Source of the DNA: Escherichia coli
GTDB taxonomy: Bacteria > Pseudomonadota > Gammaproteobacteria > Enterobacterales > Enterobacteriaceae
DNA length: 64,000 nucleotides
Direction: 5' to 3' (one strand)
Assembly: GCF_024223415.1 (NCBI RefSeq)
Contig: NZ_CP100500.1
The position numbers and the translations under genes are program-made. The stretch's first letter is position 1, and the number at the start of each line of letters is the position of its first letter. The notes beneath the pieces are model-generated. The model had not been told where the DNA came from. It worked only from the letters and a program-made list of their open reading frames with translations, and did no database searches. Of this stretch, positions 37,566 to 47,764 are shown in pieces.

Positions 37566-37811
37566 TAATACTATTCCTGCCCTGTAATTTACGGGCAGGG
37601 TATATCAACCGGAAATAGCCTACTGACATCCATGTATAAAGCCACATAATTATTTTGTTGATGTATCTTACCTAATACGTAAGCGTAAAGCCAATGCCGT
37701 CTGTAACTCCTGATCCTTGCAGACTAAATGTAAGCGCCCTATCAGCGACGTCTTGTGAAAATTGTCCTGTCTGGCAACAATTGCGCCCATCTATATTGAT
37801 GGACACGAACG

Positions 37812-38486
37812 ATGAATTCCCAGACAACAAAAGATATTCTCTGCTTCCGTTCTTATTTGCCTGATGCCCTACGTTTAAGATTTGAAGATAAACTGACTAT
37901 CCGAGCCATCGCTCAGCGTCTAGGTCTCAGTCATTCCACAATACATACGCTTTTTCAGCGATTTCTTGCATCCGGTATCGCATGGCCATTGCCCGATTCA
38001 GTTTCATTCGCTCAACTTGACGCCATCCTTTATGCCAACAGAAAGAAGGAATTAACAGAGCCTCAAATCAGAGAAGGCTCATGGCGAAAAGAACGGCGAA
38101 CCAGCTATAGCCGTGAATTTAAGGTCCGTCTGGCTAAGCAGGCATTACAGCCTGGTGCTGTTGTTGCCCGGATCGCCAGAGAACACGATATCAATGATAA
38201 GCTGCTGTTTAAATGGAAAAGCCAGTACGAGGACGGCTTACTGAGCGATGATGACATACAGGAATGCATGCCTGTCCCGGTGGCACTGACTGATAAGCCA
38301 GAGCCGACCAGACCAGTTACAAATCCCTTCTGGCGTAACAAGCCTGATGAGCGCCCTGAGGGGGATCCCGGAAACGTCCCACGGTGCGAGCTGCATCTTA
38401 AATCAGGTGTGGTAAAACTGTTTGACCCTCTCACTCCGGAACTGTTACGGGCGCTAATCCGCGAAATGAAAGGGGGTACCCGATGA
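37812..38486 (+). CDS. IS66-family orf1 with about 90-aa N-terminal HTH extension
   Basis: 224 aa; IAREHDINDKLLFKWKSQY core. Confidence 0.75.
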   Translation: MNSQTTKDILCFRSYLPDALRLRFEDKLTIRAIAQRLGLSHSTIHTLFQRFLASGIAWPLPDSVSFAQLDAILYANRKKELTEPQIREGSWRKERRTSYSREFKVRLAKQALQPGAVVARIAREHDINDKLLFKWKSQYEDGLLSDDDIQECMPVPVALTDKPEPTRPVTNPFWRNKPDERPEGDPGNVPRCELHLKSGVVKLFDPLTPELLRALIREMKGGTR

Positions 38487-38830
38487 TAACGCTGCCGACC
38501 GGTACCAAAATCTGGATCATCGCTGGCATCACAGATATGCGTTGTGGCTTCAATGGCCTGGCTTCGAAGGTGCAGAACACGCTGAAAGATGACCCGTTCT
38601 CCGGGCATATCTTCGTCTTCCGGGGCCGCAGTGGCAAAATGGTGAAAATACTGTGGGCCGATCGTGATGGGTTATGCCTGTTCGCCAAACGCCTGGAACG
38701 GGGCCGCTTCATCTGGCCGGTGACCCGGGAAGGGAAAGTGCACCTGACGCCAGCTCAGTTATCCATGCTACTGGAGGGGATCGCGTGGCAACATCCCAAA
38801 CGGACAGAACGGCCTGGCATCCGGATATAA
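38483..38830 (+). CDS. IS66-family TnpB (orf2)
   Basis: 115 aa; KIWIIAGITDMRCGFNGL. Confidence 0.85.
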   Translation: MITLPTGTKIWIIAGITDMRCGFNGLASKVQNTLKDDPFSGHIFVFRGRSGKMVKILWADRDGLCLFAKRLERGRFIWPVTREGKVHLTPAQLSMLLEGIAWQHPKRTERPGIRI

Positions 38831-38849
38831 CCCGTGATAAAACAAGGGA

Positions 38850-40454
38850 ATGAACAATGAACTCCCCGACGATATTGAGCTGCTTAAAGCCATGTTGCGT
38901 AAGCAACAGAGTCGGCTTCGCCAGTATACCTGTCAGGTCGCGGGCTATGAGCAGGAAATTGAACGGCTGAAAGCGCAACTCGACAGGTTGCGTCGTATGT
39001 TGTTCGGCCAGAGTTCAGAGAAAAAGCGTCATAAGCTTGAAAATCAGATCCGACAGGCAGAAAAACGACTGTCGGAACTGGAAAACCGGCTGAACACAGC
39101 CAGAAATCTTCTGGAAGATGCATCGTCAGTCACAGATTCACCTGACACCAGTCCCCCGTCAGAAAACCCGATCGCCAGTAAGCCTGAATCCCTGGGACGA
39201 AAATCTTCACGAAAACCGCTGCCGGCAGAACTTCCCCGGGAGACACATCGCCTTCTGCCTGCTGAAACCAGTTGCCCGGCCTGTGGAGGTGTTCTGAAAG
39301 AAATGGGGGAAACAATCTCAGAGCAACTGGATATCATTAATACCGCCTTTAAAGTTATTGAAACCATACGTCCCAAACGGGCCTGTAGCCGGTGCGACCA
39401 TATTGTGCAGGCGCCGGTTCCTTCAAAACCCATTGCACGCAGTTATGCCGGAGCGGGGCTTCTGGCTCATATCGTCACCGGGAAGTATGCAGACTATCTG
39501 CCGTTATACCGCCAGTCAGAAATATACCGTCGTCAGGGCGTGGAACTGAGCCGCGCCACGCTGGGGCGCTGGACCGGTGCCGTTGCTGAACTGCCGGAGC
39601 CGCTGTATGACGTGCTGCGCCAGTATGTGCTGATGCCCGGTAAAGTCCATGCGGATGATATCCCCGTTCCGGTCCAGGAGCCGGGCAGCGGTAAAACCCG
39701 GACAGCCCGGCTGTGGGTCTACGTCCGTGATGACCGCAATGCCGGTTCGGAAATGCCCCTGGCGGTCTGGTTCGCGTACAGTCCGGACCGGAAAGGCATA
39801 CATCCCTAGACTCATCTGGCCGGTTACAGCGGAGTGCTTCAGGCCGATGCTTACGGTGGCTACCGGGCGTTATACGAATCCGGCAGAATAACGGAAGCCG
39901 CGTGTATGGCTCATGCCCGGAGAAAAATCCACGATGTGCATGCAAGAGTGCCAACCGACATCACCACGGAAGCCCTGCGGCGTATCGGTGAACTGTATGT
40001 CATCGAGGCAGAAGTCCGGGGATGTTCAGCAGAACAGCGTCTGGCGGTAAGAAAAGCCAGAGCTGCGCCACTGATGCAGTCACTGTATGACTGGATACAG
40101 ACTCAGATGAAAACACTGTCGCGTCACTCGGATACGGCAAAAGCGTTCGCATACCTGCTGAAACAGTGGGATGGCCTGAACGTGTACTGCAGTAATGGCT
40201 GGGTGGAAATCGACAACAACATCGCAGAGAACGCCTTACGGGGAGTGGCCGTAGGCCGGAAAAACTGGCTCTTCGCGGGTTCCGACAGCGGTGGCGAACA
40301 TGCGGCGGTGTTGTACTCGCTGATCGGCACATGCCGTCTGAACAATGTGGAACCAGAAAAATGGCTGCGTTACGTCATTGAGCATATCCAGGACTGGCCG
40401 GCAAACCGGGTACGCGATCTGTTGCCCTGGAAAGTGGATCTGACCTCTCAGTAA
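38850..40454 (+). pseudogene. IS66-family transposase TnpC interrupted by an in-frame TAG at 39807-39809
   Basis: Two ORFs (38850-39809, 39834-40454) in the same frame; the intact copy has Glu at this position. Confidence 0.75.
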
Positions 40455-40491
40455 ATATCAATACGGTTCTGGCGAGCCGCTTACGAACAAT

Positions 40492-42205
40492 GTGAATTAT
40501 GTTAATTATGTTTTCAGGCAGATGCTTCTCTGTCTGTTATTGTTCTGGCTGCCTGTATCCTGGGCTACCGAAAGTGGCTGGTTGCGTTCTCCTGAGAATG
40601 AGCATGCCAGTATACGGATACGTGCTGATTCCGTGGTCTCCGGGGAAACACGTGTTTTGCTGGACGTTAAACTGGATAACGGCTGGAAAACTTACTGGCG
40701 CTCACCCGGATAAGGGGGGATTGCACCGTCAGTCGACTGGAAAAGTGAAACACCGGAAGTGGAGTGGTACTGGCCTGGCCTTCACGTTTTGACGTGGCCG
40801 GCATTACCACTACGGGATATCACAACACAGTCACGTTTCCCGTGGTGTTACGTGGTATATCACCTGAGAGGATCACTGGCGTACTGACCCTGCCTGTCTG
40901 CAGCAATGTCTGTCTGCTGACCGATTACCCTTTCACTGTGAATGTTTCCACACAGGATACAACATTTGCACATGATTACGCACAGGCCATGGGGAAAATT
41001 CCGCTTTCCCATGGGGTAGCGGATTCCTTAAACGCGGTTTACCGACCTGGTGGACTGCTCATTACCGCAATACGGGCAGACGGCTGGTCATCTCCGGATA
41101 TTTATCTGGATTCTGTTGATTATGCAAGCTTCGGTAAGCCGCAGATGCAGATTGACGGCAAGAATCTGCTCGCATCTGTGCCGGTCACGGACAACTGGGG
41201 AGAGGGGGCGCCGGACCTGACTGGCCAACAAGTCACACTGGTTATTGAAAGCGGCGGCCTCGCTCAGGAAAGTACGCTTACGGTTGCGGCAGGTGCAACC
41301 AAAATAGCAGAGAATGTCTTACCTCTTTGGCAGGTCACTCTGATGGCATTAGCTGGTGGACTCATTCTTAACCTGATGCCCTGTGTATTACCGGTTCTGG
41401 GGATGAAGCTGGGCTCAGTTTTACTGGTGGAAGAGAAAAACCGTCAGCAGATTCGATGTCAGTTTCTGATGTCTGTAGCCGGGATCCTTACTTCCTTTAT
41501 GGCTCTGGCTACGTTAATGACCCTTCTGCGGCTGACAAACCGGGCTCTGGGGTGGGGGATCCAGTATCAGAGTCCCTGGTTTATTGTTCTGATGACGCTG
41601 GTTATGCTGATTTTTAGTGCCAGTCTGTTTGGCCTGTTTGAGTTCCGCCTGCCTTCCGGCCTCATGACTCGTCTGGCGACATTTGGTGGTAATGGAATGT
41701 CCGGACATTTCTGGCAGGGCGCTTTTGCGACTCTTCTGGCGACACCGTGTAGCGCCCCCTTCCTCGGTACGGCAGTGGCAGTGGCGCTGACGGCATCACT
41801 ACCCACTCTGTGGGGGATTTTCTTTGCACTGGGCGTGGGAATGAGTCTTCCGTGGCTGTTGGTGGCGTTGCGACCCGGGCTTGCGTTGTGTTTGCCCCAT
41901 CCGGGAGGATGGATGAATATTTTGCGTCGGGTGCTTGGCCTGATGATGCTGGGTTCTGCCTTCTGGCTGACAACACTGTTACTGCCACACTTGGGAGTAT
42001 CCTCACACAGTACAACGAAAGAACAGGTTGTCTGGCAGCCTCTCAGTGAACAGGCGATTAAGGAGGCGCTGGCTCAGCATAAGCGGGTATTTATCGATGT
42101 GACTGCAGACTGGTGTGTTACCTGTAAATTCAATAAATACAATGTGCTGCAAAAAGACAATGTGCAGAAGTCGCTGCAGGAGGCGGATGTTGTTGCACTG
42201 CGTGG
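40492..42205 (+). pseudogene. scsB: ScsB-like (DsbD-family) thiol:disulfide interchange gene, decayed
   Basis: In-frame TAA at 40714-40716, 5-bp tandem duplication TGGCC near 40769-40779, 3' end truncated by IS629-like element at 42206. Confidence 0.7.
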
Positions 42206-42259
42206 TGAACCGCCCCGGGAATCCTGGAGACTAAACTCCCTGAGAAAGAGGTAAACAGA

Positions 42260-42586
42260 ATGACTAAAAATACTCGTTTTTCCCCCGAAGTCCGTCAGAG
42301 GGCGATTCGTATGGTTCTGGAAAGTCAGGGCGAATATGACTCACAGTGGGCGGCAATTTGTTCCATTGCCCCAAAGATTGGCTGTACACCGGAGACTCTG
42401 CGTGTCTGGGTACGCCAGCATGAGCGGGATACCGGAGGCGGTGATGGCGGGCTCACCACCGCTGAACGTCAGCGTCTGAAAGAGCTGGAACGTGAAAATC
42501 GTGAACTGCGCCGCAGTAACGATATCCTTCGCCAGGCTTCCGCTTATTTTGCGAAGGCGGAGTTCGACCGCCTCTGGAAAAAGTGA
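42260..42586 (+). CDS. IS629-like transposase OrfA
   Basis: [30 protein letters not shown]...; 108 aa. Confidence 0.85.
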
Positions 42587-43473
42587 TGCCACTGCTGGAT
42601 AAGCTGCGTAAGCTGTACGGGGTCGGACCGGTATGCAGTGAACTACATATTGCCCCGTCAACGTATTACCACTGTCAGCAACAGCAGCATCATCCTGATA
42701 AACGCAGCGCCCGTGCGCAGCGTGATGACTGGCTGAAGAAAGAGATACAGCGCGTATACGATGAAAATCACCAGGTGTACGGTGTGCGTAAAGTCTGGCG
42801 TCAGTTGTTACGGGAAGGTATCAGAGTGGCCAGATGCACTGTGACACGTCTTATGGCGGTTATGGGTTTTGCCGATGTTCTCCGGGGTAAAAAGGTCCGC
42901 ACTACCGTCAGCCGGAAAGCCGTTGCCGCAGGCGACCGCGTAAACCGTCAGTTTGTGGCAGAACGTCCTGACCAGTTGTGGGTGGCTGATTTTACTTACG
43001 TCAGCACATGGCAGGGGGTCGTCTATGTGGCGTTCATCATTGATGTGTTTGCCGGATACATCGTGGGGTGGCGGGTCTCATCGTCTATGGAAACGACATT
43101 CGTGCTGGATGCTCTGGAGCAGGCGTTATGGGCCCGTCGACCGTCCGGCACAGTCCATCACAGTGATAAAGGTTCTCAGTATGTATCGCTGGCCTACACA
43201 CAGCGGCTTAAGGAAGCCGGATTACTGGCATCAACAGGAAGTACTGGTGACTCGTATGACAACGCGATGGCGGAGAGCATCAATGGCCTTTACAAAGCGG
43301 AGGTAATACACCGTAAGAGCTGGAAAAACCGGACAGAAGTGGAGCTGGCCACACTCACGTGGGTGGACTGGTATAACAATCGACGATTGCTGGAAAGGCT
43401 GGGCCATATCCCACCGGCAGAAGCAGAAAAAGCTTATTATGCTTCCATCGGAAACGATGATCTGGCAGCCTGA
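42583..43473 (+). CDS. IS629-like transposase OrfB
   Basis: 296 aa with HSDKGSQY and DNAMAES motifs. Confidence 0.85.
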
Positions 43474-43515
43474 GTTCACAGATAAAACACTCTCCAGGAA
43501 ACCCGGGGCGGTTCA

Positions 43516-43790
43516 CTCCGGAGGTGGCGGCTTTATCTGCCAGGGGAGAGAATGTGATGACGATTGCATACCGTTCCGGCTCATCTGATGAGGTGAGCCG
43601 GAAGCTGGCTCTCAGGAGGAACAGGTTCCCGGTGATCAATGATGCTGATGGCACAATATCCCGTTTATGGAGAATTAGAGTAACCCCGACGTTCGTAGTG
43701 ATATCGAAGGGGCGGGTAATCTCCACAACCAGCGGCTGGACCAGTTCCTGGGGGATGAAGCTACGACTGCGGTGGGCCACAATAGTCTGA
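43516..43790 (+). pseudogene. Thioredoxin-like ScsD 3' fragment
   Basis: ...GENVMTIAYRSG...FPVINDADG...VTPTFVVISKGRVISTTSGWTSSWGMKLRL directly after the IS629-like right end. Confidence 0.45.
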
Positions 43791-44119
43791 GCAGAAGACA
43801 GCCTTCTGAGAAGGAAACCTTTCAGAAGACGCCCTTACCAAAGTTGGTGATGGAAAGACTGTTGGCAGAGAGACAGATGGACATATCCGGTCGCGCTTAT
43901 GAGACAAGTCTGTGGTCACAGAGCCTGTTTATCACTCAGTGTAAATGTCTTTTCTCAGTCGGGGGCCGTCCAGACGATAACTGGGTCCGATAATAAAGCT
44001 ACATCGCCCATTTTTGTGATGCTGCCTGGATTACCGGCTGTACGGCCTTGTACTGAGAAACAGAAAAAGACTTCAGTCACCCGGCGAAAACGGTCCCTGT
44101 CCCCCCGTTACCTTATTCG

Positions 44120-44239
<120 letters not shown>

Positions 44240-44301
44240 TACCCATCTGAAACCCGAACAGTTGTCCATACGCTATAACGCATTTGCAAGGATGGGTAAT
44301 C

Positions 44302-44585
44302 ATGAGTCAGCCAAATCAGCTTTGTGTGGGTATTGATGTTTCTAAAACAACTCTTGACATTGCTACTGCTAACAACGAGTTTGCTCAGTTTACTTCTTGT
44401 AACGACACCGATGGTTTTTAGCTCATCATTGCTGAATTGAGAAATCATTCGGTGGCGCTGGTTTTGATGGAGGCTACTGGTGGGTTTGAAGCTGCTGTAG
44501 CCTGTTCACTTTAGGCTGAAGGTTTTGATATAGCTGTTATCAATCCCAGACAGGCCAGGAATTTCTCTCGTGCTAAAATCAGTTA
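44302..44585 (+). pseudogene. IS110-family transposase N-terminal fragment with in-frame stops
   Basis: MSQPNQLCVGIDVSKTTLDIA...MEATGGFE...DIAVINPRQARNF interrupted by TAG codons. Confidence 0.55.
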
Positions 44586-44787
44586 TTTCCCGAGGTTGGA
44601 TAGCCCTGTCCGATCAACATTTCCCAACATAGCTCACAAAACAGACACTTTATTTATTGACTTTGTTTTAATATGTGATAAATACGGAGAAGTGGTCTAA
44701 CAGGTTTAATGATTGGTCGGACAAGATGATAATAAATGGCATTTTATATCAACCAATTTTCATGTTTATACATAGAGGAGGGATTAT

Positions 44788-45777
44788 ATGAAAATTAGGT
44801 TATTTATCCATTCGTTATTTTATTCATCAGTTCTGGTGACTTTGCTTATCAATAGCGTAAATGCCGCAGAAAAAGTGACATTAAAATTGGCACACAACCT
44901 TGAACGCAGTCATGTTGTACACCAGACTTTTGAACATCTGGCAAACGAGGTAAAACAACTTTCTAATGGCAATATTGTCATTCGTATATACCCCAGTAGC
45001 CAGATGGGTAATGCGCGAGAAACTATGGAGTTGTTACAAAATGGCGCACTGGATATGACCAAAGGTTCCGCCAGTGATCTGGAGTCTTTTGATAATATTT
45101 ATGCTATCTATAATTTGCCGTTCTTATTTAAAGATCAGGCGCACTTCAACAAAGTGGTTTTTGGTGAAGTTGGTAAAGAAATTATGGACTCAACAAAAGA
45201 CAAAGGCTTTTTTGCTTTATCAGCTTATGTAGCGGGTACTCGCAGTTTCTATGCGAAAAAACCGATTACTAAGCCAGAAGATCTTAAAGGGCTGAAAATT
45301 CGTGTTCAGCCAAGCCCGACCACCATCAAAATGATTGAACTGATGGGGGGCTCACCCACTCCAATTTCATTTGGCGAAGTTTATACTGCGATGCAGCAAG
45401 GTGTAGTAGATGGCGCAGAAAATAACGTGCCTTCCTGGGTGCAGACTCGACATATCGAAATTGCCAAAGTCTTTTCTGAAGATGAACATGCCTCAATTCC
45501 TGACTTTTTGGTTATCTCCACCAAAACATGGAATAAATTAACCCCAGAACAGCAACAAATCCTCGAAACAGCGGCGAAGAAATCCGAAGCTTATCAACAA
45601 AAATTGTGGGAAAAAATTGACGCTGACACACGTGCTCAGGCGAAAGCTATGGGTGGTGAAATCGTTAAGGTTGATAAAGCCCCATTCCGTGCCGCAGTTC
45701 AACCTCTGTTTGACGACTTCAAAAAAGATCCAAAACAAGCTGCTTTGTTAGAGAAATTCGACAACGCTGCTCAATAA
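44788..45777 (+). CDS. TRAP transporter substrate-binding subunit (DctP family)
   Basis: 329 aa with signal peptide; LKGLKIRVQPS and DGAENN motifs. Confidence 0.85.
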   Translation: MKIRLFIHSLFYSSVLVTLLINSVNAAEKVTLKLAHNLERSHVVHQTFEHLANEVKQLSNGNIVIRIYPSSQMGNARETMELLQNGALDMTKGSASDLESFDNIYAIYNLPFLFKDQAHFNKVVFGEVGKEIMDSTKDKGFFALSAYVAGTRSFYAKKPITKPEDLKGLKIRVQPSPTTIKMIELMGGSPTPISFGEVYTAMQQGVVDGAENNVPSWVQTRHIEIAKVFSEDEHASIPDFLVISTKTWNKLTPEQQQILETAAKKSEAYQQKLWEKIDADTRAQAKAMGGEIVKVDKAPFRAAVQPLFDDFKKDPKQAALLEKFDNAAQ

Positions 45778-45812
45778 TATTTCGGGCCAGTCTCTGGCCC
45801 TGATTTTCCAGG

Positions 45813-46325
45813 ATGCTTACAATGATATTTAACCGCCTGAAACTTGCGGTAGACCGCGTCATTGCCGCGTTTTCTGTCGCCGTCATGCTTGCTCTGGTTG
45901 TATGCGTAGTCTGGCAAGTATTTAGCCGCTACGTACTTAACCAGCCAAGTACATTAACCGATGAGCTGGCACGCTTTTTGATGATCTGGGTAGGATTATT
46001 AGGTGCTGCATATACCGTCGGCGCGCAGAGACATCTCTCTATCGATTTATTTGCTCTCGCCCTGAATAAGCGCAAGCAATTACTTCTTAGTATAGTCATT
46101 AACATTCTCATTTTAGGTTTTGCCGGTTCGGTCATTGTGACTGGTGGCCTGAAATTAATTGATAAAACACTGGCAACATCACAGGTATCTGCCGCGATGC
46201 AAATACCGATGGGATACGTATATATCATTCTGCCATTAAGTGGATTGGTGATGATGTTTTATGCCTTGTGTTTTATTAATCAAAGCATTCAACAACTGAA
46301 ACAACCTGCGCAGGAGGCCAGTTAA
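45813..46325 (+). CDS. TRAP transporter small permease (DctQ family)
   Basis: 170 aa, four predicted TM helices. Confidence 0.8.
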   Translation: MLTMIFNRLKLAVDRVIAAFSVAVMLALVVCVVWQVFSRYVLNQPSTLTDELARFLMIWVGLLGAAYTVGAQRHLSIDLFALALNKRKQLLLSIVINILILGFAGSVIVTGGLKLIDKTLATSQVSAAMQIPMGYVYIILPLSGLVMMFYALCFINQSIQQLKQPAQEAS

Positions 46326-47626
46326 TGGATAGTTATATCGCGCTTACACTATTTGGCTGTTTTTTTGTGCTGGTCTTTATTGGTGTGCCCATTTCGTTCT
46401 CAATCGGTATTGCGACTGTAGCTTCAATGCTGTTGATGTTTCCCTGGGATATCGCGGCAATCACTGTTTCGCAACGATTGGCTAATGGACTGGATAACTT
46501 TGCCCTGTTGGCAATCCCCTTTTTCATCTTTGCCGGAACACTGATGAACAGCGGCGGTATTGCGATACGTTTGATTAACCTCGCCCAGGTAATGGTTGGC
46601 CGCGTTCCTGGTTCGCTTGGTCATGTGAACGTCCTGGCGAATATGATGTTTGGTTCCATTTCTGGTTCAGCCGTTGCGGCAGCTGCTGCCGTTGGTGGCA
46701 CACTGAATCCCATTCAGACCAAAGAAGGTTATGATCCGGCATTTTCTACCGCTGTAAACGTCTCATCTTGTATTACTGGATTACTGATACCGCCCTCAAA
46801 CGTGTTAATTGTATTTTCCCTGACAGCTGGCGGCGTTTCTGTAGCATCGCTATTTATGGCGGGATATTTGCCAGGGATCTTAATGGGTCTCGCGGTAATG
46901 ATAGTCTGCGGCATTATTGCTAAACGCCGTGGCTACCCACTTTCAGAAAGAGCAACCTTTGCTCAGGCATGTAAAGCGTTTCTGGATGCCTTACCAAGTT
47001 TGCTTCTGGTGTTCATTGTAATGGGCGGCATTCTGGGCGGCATTTTTACCGCAACTGAAGCGTCAGCAATTGCCGTGGTCTACACATTTATTCTCTCGGT
47101 GCTGATTTACCGGGAAGTAAAATGGCGCGATTTACCCAAACTGATTCTGGAGTCGGTTGTTACCACTTCGATTGTATTACTGTTGATCGGTTTTTCCGTG
47201 GGCATGTCCTGGGCAATGACCAATGCTGATATTCCTTATATGATCAGCGACGCGTTGATGGGGATTTCTGATAACCCACTGGTCATATTGCTGCTGATTA
47301 ATATCGTCTTATTAATTGTCGGCATCTTTATGGACATGACACCGGCTGTACTAATCTTCACACCAATCTTCTTGCCGATTGCACAAGAGCTGGGAATGGA
47401 TCCGGTACATTTCGGTATTATGATGGTGGCCAACCTTTGTATTGGGCTGTTAACACCGCCGGTGGGTAGTGCGCTATTTGTTGGTTGTTCTATTTCAGGT
47501 GTGAAGATTCAACATTTGCTTAGACCATTGCTACCCTTTTATACAGCATTGCTAGTCGCATTGATGATGATCACTTACATTCCACAAATCTCTTTATTTA
47601 TCCCACAATTTCTAGGGCTGATGTAA
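46325..47626 (+). CDS. TRAP transporter large permease (DctM family)
   Basis: 433-aa polytopic membrane protein, abuts dctQ. Confidence 0.85.
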   Translation: MDSYIALTLFGCFFVLVFIGVPISFSIGIATVASMLLMFPWDIAAITVSQRLANGLDNFALLAIPFFIFAGTLMNSGGIAIRLINLAQVMVGRVPGSLGHVNVLANMMFGSISGSAVAAAAAVGGTLNPIQTKEGYDPAFSTAVNVSSCITGLLIPPSNVLIVFSLTAGGVSVASLFMAGYLPGILMGLAVMIVCGIIAKRRGYPLSERATFAQACKAFLDALPSLLLVFIVMGGILGGIFTATEASAIAVVYTFILSVLIYREVKWRDLPKLILESVVTTSIVLLLIGFSVGMSWAMTNADIPYMISDALMGISDNPLVILLLINIVLLIVGIFMDMTPAVLIFTPIFLPIAQELGMDPVHFGIMMVANLCIGLLTPPVGSALFVGCSISGVKIQHLLRPLLPFYTALLVALMMITYIPQISLFIPQFLGLM

Positions 47627-47638
47627 ATAATTAATAGC

Positions 47639-47660
47639 CGGACAATTTTTATTGTCCGGT
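47639..47660 (+). terminator. Hairpin after dctM (CCGGACAAT tttt ATTGTCCGG)
   Basis: 9-bp perfect stem 12 bp after the stop; only a short A/T tail follows. Confidence 0.4.
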
Positions 47661-47670
47661 AAAATTCATC

Positions 47671-47764
47671 GTAAGCGCTCCTTCTGTGCCGTCTTGTGGT
47701 GGTTGTCCTGTCTGGCAACAATCGCGTCCATCTATTGATGGACACGAACGATGAATTCTCAGAC
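47671..47764 (+). mobile_element. IS66-family left-end fragment truncated by IS2
   Basis: GTAAGCGCTCC terminus and an 80-bp match to 37738-37825, ending at the orf1 start codon where IS2 begins. Confidence 0.6.

Follow-up and report, generated by a model that had tools for sequence, protein, structure and literature searches.

An Escherichia coli contig (NZ_CP100500.1) carries, within the 64,000-nucleotide stretch analyzed here (the window), sequences resembling the copper-stress genes scsB and scsD. What did this locus once encode, how was it damaged, and could anything made from it still function? A first-pass annotation, made from the sequence alone, had proposed inactivation by three independent lesions. 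We called lesions base by base against intact alleles from three relatives (L003, L004, and L012), with L003 serving as the outgroup. The locus is, with high probability, a dead remnant of an scsABCD (suppressor of copper sensitivity) operon that was acquired horizontally and lies on an IS-ridden accessory island of E. coli. It is an ordinary pseudogene, already annotated in RefSeq, which describes the locus in NZ_CP033635.1 as pseudogenes (“frameshifted; internal stop; incomplete”).

The assignment to scsB and scsD held up. Over the part retained in the window, repaired ScsB is 100% identical to P0127, an intact 630-aa E. coli protein whose coding gene adjoins scsC and scsD, and it is ~70% identical to Salmonella ScsB. 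It has the three-domain architecture of ScsB: a DsbD_N-like periplasmic domain, a DsbD_TM core, and a thioredoxin-like domain with a CXXC motif (CVTC at 542–545 of repaired ScsB, P0127). The corresponding Pfam families (DsbD_N, DsbD_TM, and Thioredoxin_7) are kept in the window remnant, with the C-terminal thioredoxin-like domain cut at profile position 56 of 83. The N-domain of the repaired protein matches PDB 6c29. NCBIfam offered no ScsB-specific model, and DsbD models alone matched, below their cut-offs. In the intact relatives, the genes stand in the order scsA, scsB, scsC, scsD, and the neighboring ScsC matches the Salmonella ScsC structure 4gxz (E = 4.8e-91). The intact island, as seen in L004 and L012, runs IS66, nicO/DUF1007 (reverse strand), DUF302, scsA, scsB, scsC, scsD, dctPQM; assembly GCA_012902545.2 is one example with an intact island. 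This order is not present in the window: when the intact loci were compared by BLAST with the window as a whole, only scsB and the 3′ end of scsD were returned, so that scsA is missing and scsC is absent, the latter as first proposed. A plasmid nucleotide search recovered relatives at only ~68% identity, informative solely for operon order.

The scsB-like frame begins at 40492, and the following features define the remnant and its point lesions:

40492–42205, plus strand: scsB pseudogene remnant, codons 1–572 of 630, 99.7% identical to intact L012 and L004
40711–40713, plus strand: nonsense codon TAA; GAA (Glu74) in the intact alleles
40771–40780, plus strand: site of a 1-bp deletion; codon 96 (GTG) lacks one T, between 40777 and 40778

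Relative to L012, the scsB remnant shows four substitutions and one deletion in 1721 bp, and the following 529 bp show no differences. The in-frame TAA of the first-pass annotation is real, and the Glu74 that it replaces is invariant in an alignment of nine ScsB homologues. The frameshift had been attributed to a 5-bp TGGCC tandem duplication. A −1 frameshift does lie at 40771–40780, where the window literally reads TGGCCTGGCC, but its cause is different. A duplication implies an intact sequence of TGGCCTTCACG; L003, L004, and L012 instead all read TGGCCTGTGCC (W-P-V-P), against which the window aligns with a single gap as TGGCCTG-GCC. Since the intact alleles agree on this sequence and P95-x-P97 is invariant in ScsB homologues, we rejected the duplication: the lesion is the loss of one T, and the repeat-like appearance is merely a by-product. 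Aligned with all three intact alleles, the frame stays broken, by the stop at codon 74, the −1 frameshift at codon 96, and the loss of the last 58 codons.

Other differences near the start of the gene were assigned by the same comparison. At 40492, scsB begins with GTG where L004 and L012 have ATG. A 9-bp in-frame duplication at the scsB start (AATTATGTT twice, adding N-Y-V) is shared by L004 and L012 and was rejected as a lesion, and M142L and the change at 41150 were rejected as window mutations because the outgroup L003 places both on the L004/L012 side. This leaves three substitutions and one deletion as point changes on the window lineage. All four are disruptive and fall within the first 294 bp of a comparable stretch of 2250 bp, and silent or ordinary missense changes number zero in the 2.25 kb compared.

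Single-base indels beside short repeats are a frequent type of sequencing or assembly error, and the gene could in principle be intact in the organism itself. We regard the chance of this as practically nil. The same dead allele, with its TAA, missing T, and IS66 junction (described below), is shared by at least 15 further assemblies from different projects (one complete chromosome and 14 draft or metagenome assemblies), and the intact alleles assemble normally. Thirteen other independent assemblies contain the scsB remnant at 100% identity, and two more differ by one inserted base, so the lesions are not read errors. They arose once and then spread clonally. The locus is rare: among 5426 complete E. 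coli genomes, one carries it.

Downstream, scsB is truncated by a full-length insertion element, as the first-pass annotation had stated, and only a 3′ fragment of scsD lies beyond it:

42206–43515, plus strand: IS629-like element of the IS3 family, 1310 bp, with 14-bp perfect terminal inverted repeats (TGAACCGCCCCGGG)
42260–42586, plus strand: orfA of this element, 108 aa
42583–43473, plus strand: orfB of this element, 296 aa
42541–42657, plus strand: ALIL pseudoknot, a frameshift-stimulating RNA in the orfA/orfB overlap (Rfam RF01497, 116.2 bits versus a gathering score of 50)
43516–43790, plus strand: scsD 3′ remnant, comprising part of codon 78, codons 79–168, and the stop

The element has the characters of the IS629 group: a length of ~1.3 kb, inverted repeats, and orfA and orfB joined by a −1 frameshift with ALIL. 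It matches NCBIfam transpos_IS3 at 306.9 bits and is 94.35% identical, over its full length and without gaps, to IS629 of pO157 Sakai. In ISfinder practice, iso-forms are called at a threshold of ~95% identity. Its flanks, TGG and CTC, do not form a 3-bp target duplication; both are native, and they lie 1019 bp apart in the intact alleles, which indicates insertion plus deletion rather than a simple insertion. The 1019 bp replaced by the element comprise the last 58 codons of scsB, all of scsC, and scsD codons 1–77 with part of 78, including CGVC. What remains of scsD is 100% identical to residues 79–168 of the 168-residue intact L012 ScsD. It thus starts beyond the CGVC of the intact protein (residues 71–74), and neither the membrane anchor nor the CXXC is present. 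Pfam detected no family in the scsD fragment alone; intact ScsD matches Redoxin and AhpC-TSA.

A second element abuts scsB on its upstream side:

37730–40484, plus strand: IS66-family element with termini GTAAGCG...CGCTTAC, its right end 7 bp short of the scsB start codon
37812–38486, plus strand: tnpA
38483–38830, plus strand: tnpB (NCBIfam IS66_TnpB)
38850–40454, plus strand: tnpC (NCBIfam transpos_IS66), broken by a stop at 39807–39809
40485–40492, plus strand: the 8 bp adjoining the IS66 element, GAACAATG in the window and natively GAAAAATA

The presence of tnpA, tnpB, and tnpC together with GTAAGCG-type termini places this element in the IS66 family, with an internal stop in tnpC; RefSeq annotates the identical copy in NZ_CP033635.1 accordingly. 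It is not bounded by an 8-bp target-site duplication: the left flank reads GACTAAAT and the right flank GAACAATG, which fits a history of deletion or recombination. The missing segment amounts to 3587 bp of the intact relatives and contains nicO, DUF1007, DUF302, scsA, the scsB upstream region, and the native GGAG Shine-Dalgarno sequence. Two substitutions mark the 8 bp next to the element, A>C at 40488 (position −4) and the ATG>GTG change at 40492. The first-pass annotation had mentioned neither the IS66 insertion nor the 3587-bp loss nor the altered start codon. Compared with the copy in L004, the window copy is a mosaic, with 3 differences in 38049–39378 and 26 in 39379–40484. Because its right 1.1 kb (~2.3% divergent) differs far more than its left part (~0.2%), we favor a scenario in which a second, diverged IS66 copy inserted at scsB and then recombined with the resident copy; the alternative, that the resident IS66 merely deleted the sequence next to it, seems less likely.

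Counted from these alignments, at least four independent events inactivated the locus. The idea of inactivation by multiple hits therefore stands, and the number and kind of hits originally listed do not. It is very unlikely that the damage consisted of exactly three lesions (TAA, the 5-bp TGGCC duplication, and IS truncation) accumulated under relaxed selection. Such an account is right about the TAA, the position of the frameshift, and the IS truncation, but it overlooks the IS66-linked deletion and the start-codon change, in addition to misreading the frameshift.

The remains are predicted to yield no functional Scs product: ScsA and ScsC are absent, ScsB ends after 73 residues, and the scsD stub is missing its start codon, membrane anchor, and CXXC. 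A 496-aa ORF (40764–42254) is called as a protein by gene callers and contains a complete DsbD_TM domain (Pfam E = 7e-24), and one might suppose that it still yields a CcdA-like membrane electron transporter. This is extremely improbable: the ORF has no signal peptide; its first codon is an internal GTG that falls within the periplasmic N-domain, and the sequence shows no ribosome-binding site for it; it ends in IS-derived residues with its thioredoxin domain truncated; and the partners ScsC and ScsD are absent. Some strains carry an additional +C frameshift at 41008, inside this ORF, which further argues against constraint.

Damage of four kinds thus built up in the window's lineage. An IS66-linked deletion removed 3587 bp, from nicO to scsA and the region upstream of scsB, leaving the IS66-family element at −7 of scsB; the 8 bp at this junction differ by two substitutions, one converting ATG to GTG. 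Codon 74 became a stop (GAA>TAA), and codon 96 lost one T, shifting the frame. The IS629-like element stands in place of 1019 bp, a loss that an adjacent deletion could explain, as could two IS copies recombining with each other. Later, in most carriers, the IS629-like element was lost along with 3 bp on each side. The molecular routes proposed for both deletions are deduced from the junctions, and the order of the four damage events is likewise conjectural. Intermediate alleles with only some of the lesions, which would order the events, did not turn up in an exact-sequence look-up. The look-up covered five products that such alleles would encode (with the TAA alone, the missing T alone, the IS alone, or the IS-less junction alone, and the scsD stub), and its finding none is a weak test, as short or odd ORFs often go uncalled.

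The polarity of the last step is clearer. Most carriers lack the IS629-like element and 3 bp on either side of it, giving the junction GCACTGCGCGGAGG, and this IS-less junction is far commoner than the IS-bearing one (77 index blocks versus 10 contigs). Despite its abundance, we rejected it as the ancestral state: the IS-less form is without the native TGG and CTC that the window and the intact alleles keep, so the IS-bearing form is, on the evidence of these junctions, the older of the two.

Relaxed selection on the scs locus is plausible, given a review describing E. coli as lacking Scs (PMC10907172), an island full of IS debris, and the further frameshift in some strains. The later hits were presumably neutral. 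The confinement of exclusively disruptive changes to the first 294 bp is a pattern that neither pure neutral drift nor a single knock-out followed by decay predicts. Selection might instead have shut off a presumably costly truncated DsbD-like membrane reductase after IS66 landed or the C terminus was truncated, through the loss of the Shine-Dalgarno sequence, ATG>GTG, the stop at codon 74, and the frameshift at codon 96. Such adaptive silencing would account for three substitutions and one deletion that are all disruptive, lie within 294 of 2250 bp, and come with no silent or ordinary missense changes. A stop results from just 3.7% of the substitutions possible in the retained ORF, and the chance of both a nonsense and a start-codon hit among three random substitutions is ~4e-4. 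We nevertheless consider it unlikely. The statistic is post hoc and based on four events; two of the substitutions lie within 8 bp at the IS66 end and may have arrived with the junction rather than independently; and after one null mutation, further ones are not selectable. We are similarly doubtful of the broader proposition that the point lesions are non-random, whether through repeated selection against a harmful IS66-driven truncated reductase or because IS66 integration is mutagenic in its target duplication, although two of the changes do fall in a stretch beside the element whose length, 8 bp, is exactly that of an IS66 target site.

The importance of the locus beyond annotation is small. 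The rare E. coli scs island is usually a dead remnant, and “scsB” or “dsbD-like” ORFs in carrier strains are not a sign of added copper or redox tolerance. The locus does offer a clean worked example of two IS families dismantling an accessory operon. A dated polymorphism, the IS629-like element being either present or excised together with 3 bp on either flank, might be used to mark lineages. That a 5-bp “duplication” turned out to be a 1-bp deletion shows why lesion calling needs a close intact allele.

Among known systems, ScsB, ScsC, and ScsD act in copper tolerance and ScsA in peroxide tolerance; Scs is said to be absent from E. coli, with the swine diarrhoeagenic strain TA206 listed among carriers (PMC10907172). 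The intact relatives of the window locus share the gene order of Salmonella enterica scsABCD, a Dsb-like system whose expression is copper-inducible and CpxR-dependent. Compared with the Salmonella operon, the window locus has lost scsA and scsC to deletion, carries an scsB that is interrupted by a stop and a frameshift and truncated at its 3′ end, retains only a 3′ stub of scsD, and is borne on an E. coli accessory island that is mobile and rich in IS elements. With IS629 of EHEC O157, the window element shares its 1310-bp length, terminal repeats, and orfA/orfB with the ALIL pseudoknot; it differs in falling just under the ~95% iso-form level and in having no target duplication. IEE-dependent events include IS excision and IS629-adjacent deletions of a few nucleotides to >40 kb (PMC9943667). 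A close parallel is the pair of pseudogenes in E. coli ECCNB12-2 (NZ_CP033635.1, CQP61_RS24060 and CQP61_RS32350), which have the same island, IS66 junction, TAA, and missing T as the window. The ECCNB12-2 scsB remnant is 100% identical to that of the window up to the junction, where the IS629-like element, TGG, and CTC are gone, a 1316-bp deletion relative to the window.

The scs locus of the window is dead: no fewer than four independent events destroyed it. The first-pass annotation had counted three independent lesions in scsB/scsD and overlooked a 5' deletion linked to an IS66 element; its observation is partly confirmed and its interpretation, relaxed selection, partly supported. Reading window positions 39800–44600 and listing open reading frames (ORFs) gave the following features.

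Ending at 40484, + strand: 3' part of an IS66-family element, terminal ...GCCGCTTAC (sequence reading)
40492 (GTG) to 40711–40713 (TAA), + strand: scsB-like head ORF (ORF listing)
40764–42254, + strand: second scsB-like ORF, in a different frame (ORF listing)
42206–43515, + strand: IS3-family element, with orfA at 42260–42586 and orfB at 42583–43473 (ORF listing)
Ending at 43790, + strand: 88-aa ORF, the scsD stub (ORF listing)

In NCBIfam the 40764–42254 ORF belongs to the DsbD family, with IS3 and IS66 TnpB/TnpC assignments for the ORFs on either side. Pfam found partial DsbD_N, DsbD_TM and a truncated Thioredoxin_7 (profile positions 2–56 of 83) in that ORF, and no domain in the 73-aa head ORF or the downstream stub.

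We obtained comparators by searching a conceptually repaired scsB translation against the protein collection. It is 96–100% identical to intact E. coli proteins of 627–630 aa, ~73% to Citrobacter and ~70% to Salmonella homologues, and by exact look-up its retained part is identical to a 630-aa E. coli protein (P0127, MBB8077383.1). Intact proteins are encoded on contigs L003, L004/L005 and L012, which carry nicO and DUF1007 on the reverse strand, DUF302, scsA (115 aa), scsB, DsbA-like scsC (206 aa) and Redoxin-like scsD (168 aa); in L004 these are followed by the same dctPQM TRAP transporter as in the window. ScsC from the intact locus matches the Salmonella ScsC structure 4gxz (E=4.8e-91) and the ScsB N-domain matches 6c29, which justifies the scs name.

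The dctP/dctQ/dctM genes (44788–47760) appear intact, adjoin both intact and dead scs loci, and differ from L004 by 19 substitutions over 4.25 kb. Nearby lies an IS110-family transposase fragment (44303–44560) with in-frame stops (e.g., TAG at 44419–44421), whose identical sequence in the ECCNB12-2 chromosome is annotated as a pseudogene. Positions 1–25000 form an accessory island with 94–97% identity to avian and other E. coli, including PTS genes, a YadA-like adhesin and the ireA neighborhood. Because 5190–6149 matches an L003 GTPase-like gene at 91%, sequence similarity suggests that L003 belongs to a related island.

Alignment to the intact alleles shows that the scsB reading frame is not continuous. 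Across 40485–42205 the window differs from L012 at 40488, 40492, 40711 and 41150 and lacks one base at 40777/40778; the 529 bp 3' of the IS3-family element (43516–44044) are identical. With L003 as outgroup, 41150 (and 40914 relative to L004) is altered on the intact side, so the window lineage acquired four changes.

40488, position -4: A>C
40492: start codon ATG>GTG
40711: codon 74, GAA>TAA
40777/40778: codon 96, one T lost

The in-frame TAA reported in the first pass is thus real. So is the frameshift, attributed there to a 5-bp TGGCC tandem duplication, but intact alleles read TGGCCTGTGCC (W-P-V-P) where the window has TGGCCTG-GCC, so the TGGCC repeat is only apparent, created by the loss of one base. 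Glu74 and P95-x-P97 show no variation among nine ScsB homologues. We also considered a 9-bp in-frame tandem duplication at 40495–40512 (AATTATGTT twice), which adds Asn-Tyr-Val to the N-region of the signal peptide; being common to intact L004 and L012 and missing from L003, it is a harmless polymorphism rather than a lesion.

Homology to intact loci begins exactly at 40485, 7 bp 5' of the start codon and immediately after the IS66 terminus. This IS66 right end is also present in L004 and L012, but 3587 bp farther upstream, past nicO; missing from the window, therefore, are nicO, DUF1007, DUF302, scsA, the scsB upstream sequence and its GGAG Shine-Dalgarno, none of which was found elsewhere within the 64 kb. 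IS66-family elements have an 8-bp target duplication, and none surrounds this one. The window IS66 differs from the L004 copy at 3 positions in 38049–39378 and 26 in 39379–40484, a mosaic that would be expected had another, diverged copy landed at position -7 of scsB and recombined with the resident element. Positions 40488 and 40492, the two substituted sites at this end of scsB, lie in the 8 bp (40485–40492) touching the IS66 right end, a stretch as long as an IS66-family target duplication, and the two changes may have arisen jointly with the junction; coincidence or a mutagenic junction could account for this placement.

Both IS66 copies look defective: tnpC (38850–40454) has a premature stop at 39807–39809 (T at 39807, C in L004), and the L004 copy carries an additional C of its own, at the site corresponding to 38864. 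At 37679–37729, ~50 bp upstream of the true left end (GTAAGCGCCC, 37730), lies an orphan sequence resembling an IS66 terminus (GTAAGCGTAAAGCCAATGCC...), probably a leftover stump of a further IS66-family element.

The IS3-family element is 1310 bp long and has terminal repeats TGAACCGCCCCGGG. Its ALIL frameshift pseudoknot scores 116 bits in Rfam, and the element is 94.35% identical, gap-free, to the pO157 Sakai IS629 copy, so the earlier label "IS629-like" is fair. No 3-bp duplication flanks it; on either side stands native sequence, TGG and CTC, whose positions in L012 are 1019 bp apart. The missing 1019 bp take in the final 58 codons of scsB, the whole of scsC and, in scsD, codons 1–77 with part of 78, including the membrane anchor and CGVC motif (residues 71–74). 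The first-pass account of truncated scsB, absent scsC and a lone 3' scsD fragment accordingly holds, with ScsD residues 79–168 kept at 100% identity to the intact protein.

The dead allele recurs, with an scsB remnant 100% identical to the window, in the ECCNB12-2 chromosome, in five window-type draft contigs ending in the IS and in six further IS-less contigs. Most carriers have lost the IS629-like element together with 3 bp per side: the IS-less junction, GCACTGCG|CGGAGG (L001 7743/7744; L013–L020), lacks the native TGG and CTC. Since the window, like intact alleles, keeps both, its form is the older one, and the IS-less form derives from it by a later deletion of 1316 bp. The derived form is more frequent: its 502-aa ORF is indexed in 77 blocks, whereas the 496-aa ORF of the window type occurs in 10 contigs. 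Small adjacent deletions are documented for IEE-dependent IS629 excision (PMC9943667). Two IS-less contigs (L019 and L020) have an additional +C frameshift at the position matching 41008, which shows that decay is still continuing.

E. coli has canonical Dsb and copper systems with which scs is redundant, and this makes relaxed selection the default reading of the decay. Less easily accommodated is that each of the four point changes in the window lineage is disruptive and that, of the ~2250 bp available for comparison, only the first 294 contain them; silent and ordinary missense changes are absent. Stop codons are 3.7% of possible substitution outcomes, and three random substitutions would yield a nonsense as well as a start-codon change with a probability of ~4e-4. 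Selection for silencing scsB might produce such a pattern. Yet this calculation is post hoc and draws on a handful of events, and two of the four changes may have come with the IS66 junction, so we regard such selection as unlikely and keep relaxed selection as the default.

The locus is an ordinary pseudogene cluster with nothing novel about it, already known as two pseudogenes in the RefSeq annotation of ECCNB12-2. Among 5426 complete E. coli genomes a single one has it, a rarity consistent with a review according to which the Scs system is missing from E. coli; the sole E. coli among the scs carriers listed there is the swine diarrhoeagenic TA206 (PMC10907172).
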